Below, piece by piece: positions 1-24,679 of a stretch of DNA of 25,436 bases. The stretch's first letter is position 1. Each line of letters opens with the position of its first letter. The position numbers and the translations under genes are program-made. Below the pieces are notes generated by a model, which was not told the origin of the DNA, did no database searches, and saw only the letters and a list, made by a program, of their open reading frames with translations. The stretch is from a virus (taxonomy: Duplodnaviria > Heunggongvirae > Uroviricota > Caudoviricetes), in IMG/VR virus record IMGVR_UViG_2850784384_000006. The stretch is one strand, 5' to 3'.

Positions 1-276
1 TTACCGACTGCGGCCTGAGTTTTTTAAGTGACGTAAAATCGTGTTGAGGCCAACGCCCATAATGCGGGCAGTTGCCCGGCATCCAACGCCATTCATGGCC
101 ATATCAATGATTTTCTGGTGCGTACCGGGTTGAGAAGCGGTGTAAGTGAACTGCAGTTGCCATGTTTTACGGCAGTGAGAGCAGAGATAGCGCTGATGTC
201 CGGCGGTGCTTTTGCCGTTACGCACCACCCCGTCAGTAGCTGAACAGGAGGGACAGCTGATAGAAACAGAAGCCAC
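1..276 (-). CDS. insA: IS1 InsA (transposition regulator / N-terminal part of InsAB' transposase)
   Basis: 91-aa [46 protein letters not shown]... matches the IS1 InsA sequence as I remember it, with zinc-finger-like CxxC...CxxC; stop codon at 1..3. Confidence 0.9.
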
Positions 277-331
277 TGGAGCACCTCAAAAACACCATCA
301 TACACTAAATCAGTAAGTTGGCAGCATCACC
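1..331 (-). mobile_element. IS1 insertion sequence, partial (cut by window edge); insA-proximal terminal inverted repeat ends at 331
   Basis: Reverse complement of 299..331 reads GGTGATGCTGCCAACTTACTGATTTAGTGTATGA, which I recognise as the IS1 terminal inverted repeat; complete insA lies inside; insB would lie beyond position 1. Confidence 0.85.
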
Positions 332-346
332 GAAATGGACTATGAC
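318..346 (+). promoter_or_regulatory. Candidate hybrid promoter: -35-like TTGGCA inside the IS1 end (318..323), 17-bp spacer, weak -10-like TATGAC (341..346), reading into the acyltransferase gene
   Basis: Hexamers and spacing read directly from sequence; the -10 is a poor match to TATAAT, so this is speculative. Confidence 0.2.
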
Positions 347-393
347 ATAAAGATCTGATATTTTCCTCACAAAAACTTAGGGATTTTATTTTA

Positions 394-1395
394 ATGCATA
401 AGAGCAACTGCTTTGATACGGCAAGGCTTGTGGCAGCTATGATGGTTCTAATCAGTCACCACTACGCGCTCTCTGGACAACTCGAGCCGTATATATTCGG
501 CTTTGAAAGTGCTGGCGGCATTGCTGTTATCATATTCTTTTCCATATCAGGATACCTGATTTCAAAATCAGCAATCAGAAGTGATTCCTTTATTGATTTC
601 ATGGCTAAAAGAGCAAGAAGAATATTCCCTGCTCTTGTCCCTTGCTCTGTACTGACGTATTTTTTATTTGGGTGGATGCTTAACAACTTCAGTACAGAAT
701 ATTTTAGTCATGACATTATCCGGAAGACCATAAGCTCTATTTTAATGAGTCAGGCTCCAGATGCCGACATTACATCACATTTAATTCATCCCGGTATTAA
801 CGGCAGCTTGTGGACACTACCACTGGAGTTTATGTGTTACATAATAACTGGAGTGGCTGTTGCTCTACTAAAGAGCGGAAAAACGTTCATAGTTATACTA
901 TTGATTTTTGTTTCACTTTCATTAGTTGAAAGTGTATCTGAGAACAAGGATGTAATATTCTCCATTCCAGTATGGCTGTATCCTTTGCGGGGGATGGCTT
1001 TCTTTTTTGGTGCCACTATGGCGATGTATGAGAAATCTTGGAATGTAAGTAATGTGAAAATTTCCGTGATTTCTTTGCTTGCTATGTACGCATACGCGAG
1101 CTATGGCAAAGGCATTGACTATACAATGGCTTGCTATATTCTGGTTTCTTTCTCAACAATAGCTATATGCACATCCTTTGGAGATCCACTGGTTAAGGGT
1201 AGGTTTGATTACTCTTATGGTGTATACATTTATGCATTCCCCGTTCAGCAGGTTATTATAAATACATTGCATATTGGCTTTTACCCTTCGATGTTGTTAA
1301 GTGCCATTGTCGTTCTTTTCTTGGCTCATCTTTCTTGGAATCTAATTGAAAAAAGATTCCTTACACGAAGCTCGCCAAAATTATCCCTGAATTGA
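394..1395 (+). CDS. oac: Acyltransferase family 3 integral membrane protein, O-antigen O-acetyltransferase-like (serotype-converting Oac type)
   Basis: 333-aa ORF, hydrophobic throughout (multi-TM); N-terminal R...HH motif (RLVAAMMVLISHH) and FFSISGYLIS segment typical of acyltransferase-3; length and N-terminus resemble phage Oac as I recall it. Markedly AT-rich versus flanking phage genes. Symbol is tentative. Confidence 0.7.
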   Translation: MHKSNCFDTARLVAAMMVLISHHYALSGQLEPYIFGFESAGGIAVIIFFSISGYLISKSAIRSDSFIDFMAKRARRIFPALVPCSVLTYFLFGWMLNNFSTEYFSHDIIRKTISSILMSQAPDADITSHLIHPGINGSLWTLPLEFMCYIITGVAVALLKSGKTFIVILLIFVSLSLVESVSENKDVIFSIPVWLYPLRGMAFFFGATMAMYEKSWNVSNVKISVISLLAMYAYASYGKGIDYTMACYILVSFSTIAICTSFGDPLVKGRFDYSYGVYIYAFPVQQVIINTLHIGFYPSMLLSAIVVLFLAHLSWNLIEKRFLTRSSPKLSLN

Positions 1396-1403
1396 ATAAT
1401 AAA

Positions 1404-1419
1404 GGGGCCATCGAGCCCC
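1404..1419. terminator. Candidate weak bidirectional terminator hairpin (GGGGC-CATCGA-GCCCC) 9 bp after the acyltransferase stop
   Basis: 5-bp GC stem with 6-nt loop; followed by TGAATAAAT on plus and TTTATTATT on minus strand; no clean U-tract. Confidence 0.3.
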
Positions 1420-1685
1420 TGAATAAATCAAAGCCAGATATAACACTGCCTGGCAGTGGACACCGTTCTGATGCCTCGTCCTGCAAGGACGAGCGAAGGT
1501 GGAGTTCTTTTCCACGCAGCTATTTAGTACAGTACTGAGTCATATTGTTTATGTATGAGTTAACTTCCGTAATATCAATTAAATAAAATAAGTTGAGGCC
1601 ATTGTAGAAGTGAGCATTATATCCAGGTTATCTGGACCTGTTGAAAAATGCGTATTATTCCAACAATTACCCTAGATTAACAAGT

Positions 1686-2087
1686 CTATTTATTTGGATG
1701 CATAGGCCACTCGGGTTTTACTACATTAACACGCATAAGCAGTACGCGATATTTTTTCCATGCCAGTAACAGTTTCGTTTCATCATCTGTTGCCATACCT
1801 AAATCAACCGCATCCTGAAGCGGCGCTATTACATTCGTTGCCTCTGCTATCAGTGCAGATTTCTTTTCATCATTTATTAAGGCTAATTGTTCTGGTGTTG
1901 GAGAAGGACGGTCAACAATGACAGGGTGACCGTTCTCACCACAGGTAATCATTTTTGTTACACTCTGTGAGTTAATCAGTGTTTTCCACTCTGATTCCGA
2001 GATTTCCACTGCATCATCAGGAATATTGGTGCCGTGAAATTCAGTCGAATAAAATCCGTTTGTCGATGCAGAATAAAAATATGACAT
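1686..2087 (-). CDS. tfa: Tail fibre assembly protein (Tfa-like chaperone)
   Basis: ORF track gives 1686..2183; C-terminus ...APLQDAVDLGMATDDETKLLLAWKKYRVLLMRVNV... matches the conserved Tfa C-terminal motif (lambda Tfa has APLQDAADLE...LLEAWKKYRVLL). Start placed at internal Met (MSYFYS...) 2 nt after the tail-fibre stop; the longer start would overlap the fibre gene by 92 nt. Confidence 0.8.
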   Translation of the reverse strand: MSYFYSASTNGFYSTEFHGTNIPDDAVEISESEWKTLINSQSVTKMITCGENGHPVIVDRPSPTPEQLALINDEKKSALIAEATNVIAPLQDAVDLGMATDDETKLLLAWKKYRVLLMRVNVVKPEWPMHPNK

Positions 2088-2091
2088 TTCG

Positions 2092-2901
2092 TTAATATCC
2101 CATTGCAATGTAATACGCATCAGCAGATGAACCATATCCTGAACCGGGCGACACTGTAATATCAAATCCAGTGTTATGGACATTTGTCGCCGATACAGTC
2201 GGCTGCCCTGACGCGCCAGTAACGTTCAATGTAACTGTGACAGCAAGGACTCTTGAGAATGTCATCGGGAACCTCATCCCGTATGTTGAAGATACATTCG
2301 GGGAGCCATTCAACTGACCGCACTGTAAAATTAATCCAGACGGAAATTTTTGCGCAGCAGCCGTTGCGGTATTACTTGACGCGAACAGGCTCATATCAGG
2401 TATCTGATTCGCCCCTGTACCTACATTCCTTTTAGCCGCTTCTCCCAAACCAAGGTATGTGAGAATGTCAGCAATAGTATTTTTCCCAATAATGTCACGG
2501 CCAACAGAAGTTAAATCAGTCTGCGCTGCTGTATCATTTCCAGTGAAATATGGGAGTTTATTTGCACCTGTTGCGAGCCCAGCTAATGCCGACAGCGTGG
2601 CATCAAGCGCCTGGAAATCTTTCCCGAAAGCGGTCCCCATTTTGGATATAAACCCGTTCAGGTCTCCATCATCAAGCACATCCAGCCTGCTTTTGTTGGC
2701 GGTGTACTGCGCCAACGCTGCCGCGATAAAGCTGGCTTGCCGAATAGCTTTGTTGACCTGTGCGCTGGATGCTTTACCTGCCGTAAACCCTGAAAGCAGA
2801 GCCGGAAGTGCTTCCCAGTCAGCTTGTGAGGTGACGTTAGCGTTCGGATCAAGCGCGAAAGGTTTAAAGTTGTTTATTGCCATTAGAGTATTGTCCCCCA
2901 T
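2092..2901 (-). CDS. Tail fibre protein (host-range determinant)
   Basis: 269-aa Gly/Ser/Thr/Ala-rich ORF with low-complexity central region and beta-rich C-terminus, sitting between a DUF2612-like baseplate gene and tfa. Start could be 2901 or the Met at 2883. Confidence 0.6.
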   Translation of the reverse strand: MGDNTLMAINNFKPFALDPNANVTSQADWEALPALLSGFTAGKASSAQVNKAIRQASFIAAALAQYTANKSRLDVLDDGDLNGFISKMGTAFGKDFQALDATLSALAGLATGANKLPYFTGNDTAAQTDLTSVGRDIIGKNTIADILTYLGLGEAAKRNVGTGANQIPDMSLFASSNTATAAAQKFPSGLILQCGQLNGSPNVSSTYGMRFPMTFSRVLAVTVTLNVTGASGQPTVSATNVHNTGFDITVSPGSGYGSSADAYYIAMGY

Positions 2902-4759: not shown

Positions 4760-5707
4760 TTATGCCTCGCTTGTTACAGTCGTCTGGCCGTAGATTGTGT
4801 CAATGGAGGAAGTGAAGGTGACGCGACGGCTGGTGCCGTCATAATTGGTATCGAAGGAAAGAATCGACAGAACGCCCGGTGTATCCTGTATGCGTTCGCG
4901 TATAGCCAGGATGTAGACATCTGATCGCTGCTTCCCAAGCACTGACTGAACATACGGCGTGCCTTCCGTCAGATCGAGAAACCACTGACCGCGCCACAGC
5001 TCGAAACGGGTTTTTACGGCCTGGGCGACACTGATACCAGAAGCTGTTACGTCATTCGTTACCATCACCGGCCCAAGCATCGTCGCAGTACCGCCGCTTT
5101 CGCCCATTCCCTGAGACAAGTTGCCATTAATCGTTACGTTGCCGTTCAGCGTGATAGTCGGGGATGTGATTGTCGTTCCACCTTCAGCCGTAGCTGTAAG
5201 CTGGCCCGGTGTTTTAATGGTGATGTTATGTCCTGCGGCGACTTCTACAAACGCCGCACCATCATCGGTTCGCAGCTGCGCGGCGCTGGTACTGATACCG
5301 CTGATTTTCCGTGCTTGCGACTGCGGGCCAACGATGGCGAACGCATCAGATAAGTCATGCTGGCGCGGGTCGACGGTCTCCTGAACGCCGCCGCTCTGCC
5401 ACCAAAAATCGATGCAACGGTCAGCAAAAATCAGGAGGCACTCGTCGCCTTCTTTTACCGGAAAGGTCAGCGTGCAACCGCCGCCGCGCGGGAAGATGAC
5501 CGGCACATCCACCAGCGGTTTTAATTCGGTGGATCCATCGCCAACAATACCGCGTAGCGCCACCTCTACTGTGCAGGTAACAGTCTCAGGATCGAACGAC
5601 TGAATGATGCCGGGCATCGCTACGCGCATCTGGGTAGACACCGAATCGGCAATGGCCTGCGCGGTCTGCTGCTCACCGCCGATCTGTGATTGAGTTGGAA
5701 TTGGCAT
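4760..5707 (-). CDS. Baseplate central spike-like protein (phage Gp138 N-terminal domain type)
   Basis: 315-aa ORF; N-terminal region ...MPGIIQSFDPETVTCTVEVALRG...PLVDVPVIFPRGGG... resembles the Gp138_N OB-fold; Gly/Thr-rich repeats in the middle suggest beta-helix. RBS GGGGG 4 nt before ATG. Confidence 0.6.
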   Translation of the reverse strand: MPIPTQSQIGGEQQTAQAIADSVSTQMRVAMPGIIQSFDPETVTCTVEVALRGIVGDGSTELKPLVDVPVIFPRGGGCTLTFPVKEGDECLLIFADRCIDFWWQSGGVQETVDPRQHDLSDAFAIVGPQSQARKISGISTSAAQLRTDDGAAFVEVAAGHNITIKTPGQLTATAEGGTTITSPTITLNGNVTINGNLSQGMGESGGTATMLGPVMVTNDVTASGISVAQAVKTRFELWRGQWFLDLTEGTPYVQSVLGKQRSDVYILAIRERIQDTPGVLSILSFDTNYDGTSRRVTFTSSIDTIYGQTTVTSEA

Positions 5708-5929: not shown

Positions 5930-6220
5930 ATGGGATTTAGATTTCGTAAAAGAATCCGGATTGCGCCCGGACTCGCGATCAACATTAGTAAAAGCGGAGT
6001 AAGCACTTCAATTGGTGGTAAAGGTTCCACCATTAACATCGGGAAAAAAGGCGTAAAGATGACAAATGGCCTTCCCGGCACGGGGCTGTCGCATACCACT
6101 AACCTTTACTCTCCCGGGAAATCGACAGAAAAAAAACAACTTACTCATAAGCAAAAAATAATTAGAAACATCCTGTTCGTAATTATTGTGTTTATAATAA
6201 TTAAAGCTCAATATTTTTGA
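5930..6220 (+). CDS. Small DUF4236-like protein with C-terminal hydrophobic anchor (moron gene)
   Basis: 96-aa ORF MGFRFRKRIRIAPGLAINISKSGVSTSIGGKGSTINIGKKGVKMTNGLPGTGLS... is the characteristic DUF4236 repeat pattern as I recall it; C-terminal IIRNILFVIIVFIIIKAQYF is TM-like. RBS AGGAG at 5918..5922; opposite strand to all flanking phage genes; AT-rich; followed by a terminator. Confidence 0.7.
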   Translation: MGFRFRKRIRIAPGLAINISKSGVSTSIGGKGSTINIGKKGVKMTNGLPGTGLSHTTNLYSPGKSTEKKQLTHKQKIIRNILFVIIVFIIIKAQYF

Positions 6221-23430: not shown

Positions 23431-23502
23431 TGAAGTGGCACACTGAATTTGGCCACCTGAACAGAGGTGATATGCTCACCTCAGAACAACACAGGTGCTC
23501 CA

Positions 23503-24671
<1,169 letters not shown>

Positions 24672-24679
24672 CCACTTCA

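Follow-up and report, generated by a model that had tools for sequence, protein, structure and literature searches.

The closest described relative of the locus analysed here is that of oac1b, a divergent O-acetyltransferase gene of Shigella flexneri serotype 1b with 110 changes over 1002 bp, which Sun et al. 2012 reported in the order torR-torT-IS1-oac1b-tail genes, accompanied by IS911 and an HK022-like integrase (PMC3630932; GenBank JN377795, JF450728). The prophage described there carries a truncated ycmA (also spelt ymcA in that paper) and is incomplete and non-inducible; no att site was found, and the insertion site was termed unusual (PMC3630932). When cloned, oac1b turns serotypes Y, X, 4a and 1a into 3b, 3a, 4b and 1b and confers the group 6 antigen, the readout being agglutination after transformation (PMC3630932). 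The oac gene (oacA) of Shigella phage Sf6, a P22-like podovirus whose int is intact and adjoins oac, provides a second point of reference, and oacD of SfII (SfII_25) a third; OacD acetylates O-6 of GlcNAc (PMC9558356), and oacD is followed by ISSfl9 and gtrII-gtrB-gtrA. Proteins of the acyltransferase-3 (AT3) family share an R/K-X10-H motif in TM1 and an RXXR motif in the first cytoplasmic loop, and in Oac R73, R75 and R76 are critical arginines (PMC9558356, PMC3630932). Since Sun et al. 2012 described both the torT-IS1-oac1b-tail arrangement and the function of the gene, the locus is already in the literature: that paper covered oac1b and what it does, and likewise the neighbouring IS1 and the defective prophage. 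The locus is relevant to typing and to O-antigen vaccines, since oac1b is the gene that defines S. flexneri serotype 1b (together with some 3b isolates) and genomic serotyping makes use of it. The present analysis adds minor refinements, namely a clean IS1 insertion that spares the putative promoter, an HK022-type attR beside torT, and Sf6-type int and tailspike stubs on the oac cassette.

The window, by which we mean the whole stretch of 25,436 nt that was analysed, carries the following features at its left end:

1-331, minus strand: left part of IS1 (insA at 1-276, left inverted repeat ending at 331); the window begins inside the element.
318-346, plus strand: candidate hybrid promoter read from the sequence, with the IS1 outward -35 TTGGCA at 318-323, a 17-bp spacer and TATGAC at 341-346.
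332-340, no strand assigned: right copy of the 9-bp IS1 target-site duplication, GAAATGGAC; in loci L003-L009 an identical 9 bp adjoins the opposite end of the element.
336-364, plus strand: Sf6-type putative oac promoter, with TGGACT at 336-341, a 17-bp spacer, TATTTT at 359-364 and a TG at 356-357 (extended -10); positional equivalent in Sf6 AF547987.
379-383, plus strand: ribosome-binding site AGGGA, which aligns with that annotated in Sf6 X59553, 11-15 nt upstream of the ATG.
394-1395, plus strand: oac1b, O-antigen O-acetyltransferase of 333 aa with only an acyltransferase-3 domain (Pfam PF01757, PHROG O-acetyltransferase).
1403-1420, no strand assigned: GC-rich hairpin AGGGGCCATCGAGCCCCT, the oac terminator common to Sf6, aligning with the Sf6 'putative terminator for oac'.
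1421-1440, no strand assigned: mosaic junction set by homology limits, consisting of an Sf6-like tailspike 3'-end stub and the 8-bp GCCAGATA (1433-1440).
1441-1685, no strand assigned: non-coding SfII-type spacer, found among phage records in SfII only and also in SfII-like E. coli prophages.
1686-2183, minus strand: tail fibre assembly gene, tfa (Pfam Caudo_TAP, PHROG 188).
2092-2901, minus strand: tail fibre gene with a gp53-like C-terminus (Pfam PF21882, PHROG tail fibre).

The open reading frame at 394-1395 matches Pfam Acyl_transf_3 (PF01757) over residues 6-309 of 333 (E=2.5e-25), and the AT3 domain spans the protein, with no other domain and no fused SGNH domain in the Pfam search; a search of NCBIfam with the same protein gave no matching model. 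The gene has 39.2% GC, against 52.7% in the remaining window, and its start codon is separated from the IS1 end at 331 by 62 bp (332-393), in agreement with the initial annotation, which had described an AT-rich acyltransferase-3 gene at this distance from an IS1 end. Exactly 110 of its 1002 nt differ from Sf6 oac (89.0% nucleotide identity), which equals the count given for oac1b in PMC3630932, with 31 amino acid differences between the proteins (90.7% identity), and window 330-1440 shares 88.5-88.7% nucleotide identity with the Sf6 oac region; beyond the oac/oac1b pair, the next best relatives have about 55% protein identity or less. The two genes also agree in length, putative promoter, ribosome-binding site, terminator and critical arginines, and the motifs R11-X10-H22 and R73-A-R75-R76 are present in Oac1b and invariant relative to Sf6 Oac. 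A crude Kyte-Doolittle scan of Oac1b gives at least seven strongly hydrophobic stretches; the published Oac topology has 10 TM segments. Judged by its sequence, window 394-1395 is the published oac1b of S. flexneri serotype 1b. The earlier proposal of a serotype-converting O-acetyltransferase is thus upheld, both by the identity to Sf6 Oac and by the correspondence to the functionally tested oac1b. Homology and the published assay suggest that Oac1b, a membrane protein, would acetylate O-2 of a rhamnose in the O-antigen repeat and thereby produce the group 6 antigen.

Alignment to characterised proteins had been put forward as a check, and when run it set the 90.7% amino acid identity to Sf6 Oac against 20% over 76 residues to OacD (E=0.047). 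SfII oacD occupies the same slot as oac1b, upstream of the same spacer of about 250 bp and tfa, but OacD is a different acyltransferase, and a kinship of Oac1b with it beyond family level was rejected on these figures. The ISSfl9 and gtrII-gtrB-gtrA that follow oacD in SfII are absent here. Unchanged, the Oac1b protein occurs in thousands of S. flexneri assemblies (1687 assembly-collection blocks; named S. flexneri, UniProt H9MZE4), and the window is identical to CP034060.1 across all 11,395 overlapping bases. In complete E. coli genomes the oac allele is of the Sf6 type only; one E. coli allele, P0125, is identical to Oac1b at 331 of 333 residues and is recorded under accessions EHS3090432.1, HBU6752480.1 and HCQ3881907.1.

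Several records give a 100% match to IS1 across window 1-331, which encodes the InsA N- and C-terminal domains recognised by Pfam. Because the other IS1 end falls outside the window, we fetched eight genomic loci encoding an identical Oac1b protein, seven of which (L003-L009) include both IS1 junctions. In 7/7 of these the element is 768 bp long (complete in L004 at 9171-9938) and is flanked on both sides by the perfect 9-bp direct repeat GAAATGGAC, a length in keeping with the 8-9 bp that IS1 duplicates at its target. When IS1 and one copy of the repeat are removed in silico, the sequence becomes colinear with the Sf6 int-oac spacer, save for a spacer deletion of about 79 nt, and it likewise lines up with the Sf6-like prophage of E. 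coli CFSAN061762, which is free of IS1 and has the same att, int-remnant and oac order with nothing between. The target duplication points to simple transposition in a single ancestral event with no adjacent deletion, and on this evidence the IS1 beside oac1b is a simple insertion by which nothing was deleted. A single later insertion, 62 bp upstream of the oac1b start codon, would have duplicated GAAATGGAC at no loss to the sequence around it. Among the oac1b loci examined the insertion is fixed, and an IS1-free oac1b, sought with an exact 41-nt oac1b-specific pattern, was found in none of the viral, genome and metagenome contig collections.

The initial annotation had considered that IS1 might have replaced the original prophage-host junction or neighbouring genes such as a gtr cluster, and both suggestions fail on what lies to the left of the element. 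The interval between torT and IS1 is 382 bp and comprises an HK022-type att core, sib homology and an int remnant. From the attR core CCTTTTTCACCTAAAGG onward, the attP arm and sib show 89% identity to HK022 (outside the window, at 8845-9050 of L004), and it is at this att position that the 15-bp duplication annotated for Stx1a phage integration also falls. A further stretch of roughly 80 nt in the interval shares homology with the Sf6 integrase gene at its 3' end. E. coli 09-00049 has a P22-like prophage at torT that is bordered by the same att and int-remnant arm, with no oac. By homology, an HK022-type attR with sib is situated just beyond IS1, adjoining torT, and the prophage-host junction is intact, which leaves no room for a lost gtr cluster; the 9-bp target duplication leaves none either, and the IS1-free relative has no such cluster there. 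As identified by this likeness to HK022, an attR of the HK022 type is present at the canonical torT site, which corrects the 2012 statement that there was no att site. The initial annotation had proposed comparing 332-393 and 1396-1685 with related prophages to find the original att; 332-393 proved to be an Sf6-type oac leader and 1441-1685 an SfII-type spacer, with att lying beyond IS1 and outside the window. The predicted position of the gene, at the att-proximal end of the prophage beside tail fibre genes, was nevertheless correct, as tfa (1686-2183) and the tail fibre gene (2092-2901) follow it. We propose a model in which a defective prophage is integrated at the HK022 attachment site next to torT, with oac1b at its attR end, and in which the original order would have been torT, attR (HK022 type), sib, Sf6-type int 3' remnant, oac promoter, oac1b, terminator and tailspike stub.

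Sequences on both sides of the IS1 junction could contribute to transcription of the gene. The Sf6 record AF547987 annotates a 'putative oac promoter' at -59 to -31, TGGACT-17-TATTTT (1504-1532 in L001); an earlier Sf6 record has no oac promoter annotated. Its equivalent here, at 336-364 to the right of IS1, begins 4 bp past the element and has stayed intact, most of its -35 falling inside the duplicated 9 bp, contrary to the earlier suspicion that IS1 had replaced the native promoter. This promoter scores 8/12, which is below the scan threshold, and has the conserved A2 and T6 in its -10 as well as the upstream TG. The -35-like TTGGCA (318-323) and the weak -10-like TATGAC (341-346) at 17-bp spacing, to which the initial annotation had drawn attention, are present as described; this hybrid candidate scores 9/12, and its -10 matches at 4/6 positions, without the conserved T at position 6. 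A consensus promoter scan reported neither candidate (336-364 or 318-346). The outward -35 box of IS1 is documented, and IS1 fusion promoters are known for bla TEM-1, acrEF and afaA (PMC8764528, PMC9330008), so the hybrid mechanism is a legitimate one. As in described IS1 hybrid promoters (Prentki et al. 1986; afaA, E. coli ST131), the -35 here is located in the inverted repeat, 8 bp from its end, and the -10 candidate falls right after the 9-bp duplication; what sets the present case apart is a poor match at the -10 candidate and, 18 bp further downstream, a native promoter that is still intact.

The explanation that best accounts for the locus as a whole, to which we assign a probability of roughly 0.85, is that oac1b resides in a defective prophage at the HK022 site and that IS1 inserted cleanly beside it. 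The promoter assignment is less secure. We somewhat favour the native Sf6-type promoter, and oac1b would then still be transcribed mainly from its own 336-364 sequence; on sequence grounds, however, either promoter may drive the gene, and the IS1-derived TTGGCA-17-TATGAC pair may add to or modulate the native output. That expression actually depends on this hybrid of the IS1 TTGGCA and the flanking TATGAC we consider unlikely, even though both hexamers are present at the optimal 17-bp spacing, fusion promoters of this kind have been documented, and the IS1 insertion is fixed in all oac1b loci examined. The published functional clone also appears to have contained the IS1 end: by our reading of the published coordinates it began 134 bp upstream of the ATG, in a multicopy vector, so that 72 bp of IS1 and the two candidate promoters were all part of it. 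On the other side, TATGAC lacks the T at position 6 of the -10 and the site went unreported by the scan, agreement with TATAAT at 4 or more positions is expected of a random hexamer with a probability of 0.038 (about 4% per position), and the native core promoter is intact, so that no replacement promoter is required. InsA binds the IS1 inverted repeats, as Zerbib et al. 1990 reportedly found, and would then tend to occlude the IS1 -35 in an IS1-rich genome.

An effect in the opposite direction, whereby IS1 lowers or modulates oac1b expression because the sequence upstream of about -39 was replaced and InsA/IHF sites and the divergent insA promoter were brought close, strikes us as slightly less probable again. 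IS1 ends only 4 bp from the native -35, the scan places a divergent IS1 promoter, CTGCCA-16-TATGAT, at 324-297 on the minus strand, and an IS1 upstream of osmB cut the osmB transcript level in E. coli ST131 (PMC8764528); but serotype 1b strains express the group 6 antigen (PMC3630932), and the sequence upstream before the insertion has no obvious A/T-rich UP element. More doubtful still is that the fixed insertion is adaptive, tying acetylation of the O-antigen to IS1 either by an InsA-sensitive hybrid promoter or by interfering with the native one; were it so, the level of group 6 modification, and with it recognition by phages and antibodies, would be set by the IS1 load of the Shigella genome. 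The reading of the gene as a non-LPS acyltransferase (for peptidoglycan or exopolysaccharide), next to an IS1 that erased a prophage end with a gtr cluster, could appeal to the generic character of the Pfam AT3 assignment and to the lack of an NCBIfam match. We give it almost no credence: it is refuted by the published functional assay of oac1b and by the 110-nt match, with Sf6 Oac at 90.7% identity and the next relatives at 55% or less, and a deletion by IS1 is at odds with both the 9-bp duplication and the intact attR.

The right-hand junction also supports the explanation preferred here. The hairpin at 1403-1420 has its T-run on the minus strand, and the terminator scan calls the minus strand. 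Homology to Sf6 continues through the terminator and the last few tailspike codons and stops at 1440, and homology to SfII begins at 1431, with GCCAGATA (1433-1440) common to the Sf6-like and SfII-like parents. In SfII, and likewise in E. coli prophages of the SfII type, it is the equivalent of the 1441-1685 spacer that separates oacD from tfa. In Sf6, the 3' end of int upstream of oac and the 3' end of the tailspike gene downstream are homologous to the sequences flanking oac1b here; whereas Sf6 has an intact int beside oac, about 80 nt of int and 13-20 nt of the tailspike gene remain here, about 79 nt are missing from the int-oac spacer, an IS1 has been inserted, and the remaining prophage has a myovirus-type tail. 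Since the oac cassette carries Sf6-type int and tailspike stubs, an origin in a P22-like phage is indicated. The stretch that runs from attR into the tailspike stub resembles the end of a P22-like podovirus, to which myovirus tail genes have become attached through microhomology. In such an exchange, the podovirus tailspike stub of 13-20 nt would have been joined at the 8-bp microhomology to an SfII-like spacer and the myovirus tail fibre genes. A search of Rfam over 1-2400 returned nothing relevant, yielding no more than an IS009 match below threshold, located in tfa, and an snoRNA match attributable to chance.

The tail fibre assembly gene has 94-98% nucleotide identity to SfII, SfI and SfIV, and gene callers choose a shorter start for it, giving 144-149 aa; beyond about 2879, no sequenced phage comes closer than Citrobacter phage Omnitron, which has about 92% identity. 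Compared with the published serotype 1b locus, both the oac1b gene and its torR-torT-IS1-oac1b-tail, IS911 and HK022-like int context are the same, and the strain of the window differs in a second IS911 inside a tail gene (the two copies being at 8111-9359 and 23431-24679) and in a 146-bp deletion, which also sets it apart from other strains. One genome, CP026871.1 (L003), has an IS911 joined at the equivalent of window position 2992 and has lost nearly the whole prophage, keeping little beyond oac1b, tfa and the tail fibre gene. The two IS911 copies, the 146-bp deletion and the near-complete loss in CP026871.1 therefore fit a conversion gene that outlasts its phage, as the initial annotation had anticipated. 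In ShigaPass data, oac1b is also lost through stop codons or IS1 disruption, with a serotype 1a phenotype as the outcome.

The prophage end adjoining torT is preserved in L004, a genomic locus encoding a protein identical to Oac1b, where it lies on the far side of IS1 from oac1b and takes the form of an HK022-type attR accompanied by a remnant of an Sf6-type integrase gene. The earlier description of the oac1b prophage reported that the att site was not found, and termed the insertion site unusual (Sun et al. 2012, PMC3630932). The features concerned, together with those of the prophage interior discussed below, are as follows.

L004 8789-9170, torT-IS1 interval, outside the window: HK022-type attR, comprising the core CCTTTTTCACCTAAAGG, the P arm and sib
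L004 8789-9170, same interval, outside the window: 3' end of an Sf6-type int, a remnant of about 80 nt
Window 5930-6220, plus strand: DUF4236 ORF of 96 aa, matching several PHROGs of unknown function
Window 8111-9359: IS911, first copy
Window 23431-24679: IS911, second copy

The IS1 copy of the window differs from the same-site copy in L004 at four positions (window 28, 31, 34 and 70), which suggests either that IS1 copies have undergone gene conversion or that they collapsed in the assembly.

Downstream of oac1b, the 8-bp sequence GCCAGATA (window 1433-1440) is common to the Sf6-like and SfII-like parental sequences and lies exactly at the mosaic joint, where a stub of the 3' end of the Sf6-like tailspike gene has been kept. 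The top promoter-like match of the region (TCAACA-17-TATAAT, 10/12; window 1616-1644, minus strand) falls within the SfII-type spacer and is directed antisense toward oac1b. Genes of this type also occur beyond S. flexneri, since an E. coli protein (P0125; EHS3090432.1, HBU6752480.1) is identical to Oac1b at 331 of 333 positions.

The two IS911 copies share 99.9% identity; the first interrupts a Dit-like tail gene and is missing in several other strains, and the second stands immediately ahead of the gene for the HK022-like integrase, located between 24693 and the end of the window. A further mark of prophage decay is the loss, relative to L004, of 146 bp at about window 5024-5031, which has merged the sheath-initiator (gp25-like) and spike/Apex genes into a single 315-aa ORF (4760-5707). 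In another locus encoding the identical protein (L003, CP026871.1), the prophage has been almost wholly deleted, with oac1b, tfa and the tail fibre gene kept beside the integrase, and IS911 directly abuts a DUF2612 gene remnant at the equivalent of window 2992.

Within the tail module, which is otherwise encoded on the minus strand, the DUF4236 ORF runs on the opposite strand and could be a moron. Inside the tail fibre assembly gene, window 1717-1893 (minus strand) gave a sub-threshold Rfam match to IS009, scoring 46.9 bits (E=4.6e-9) where the gathering score is 117.
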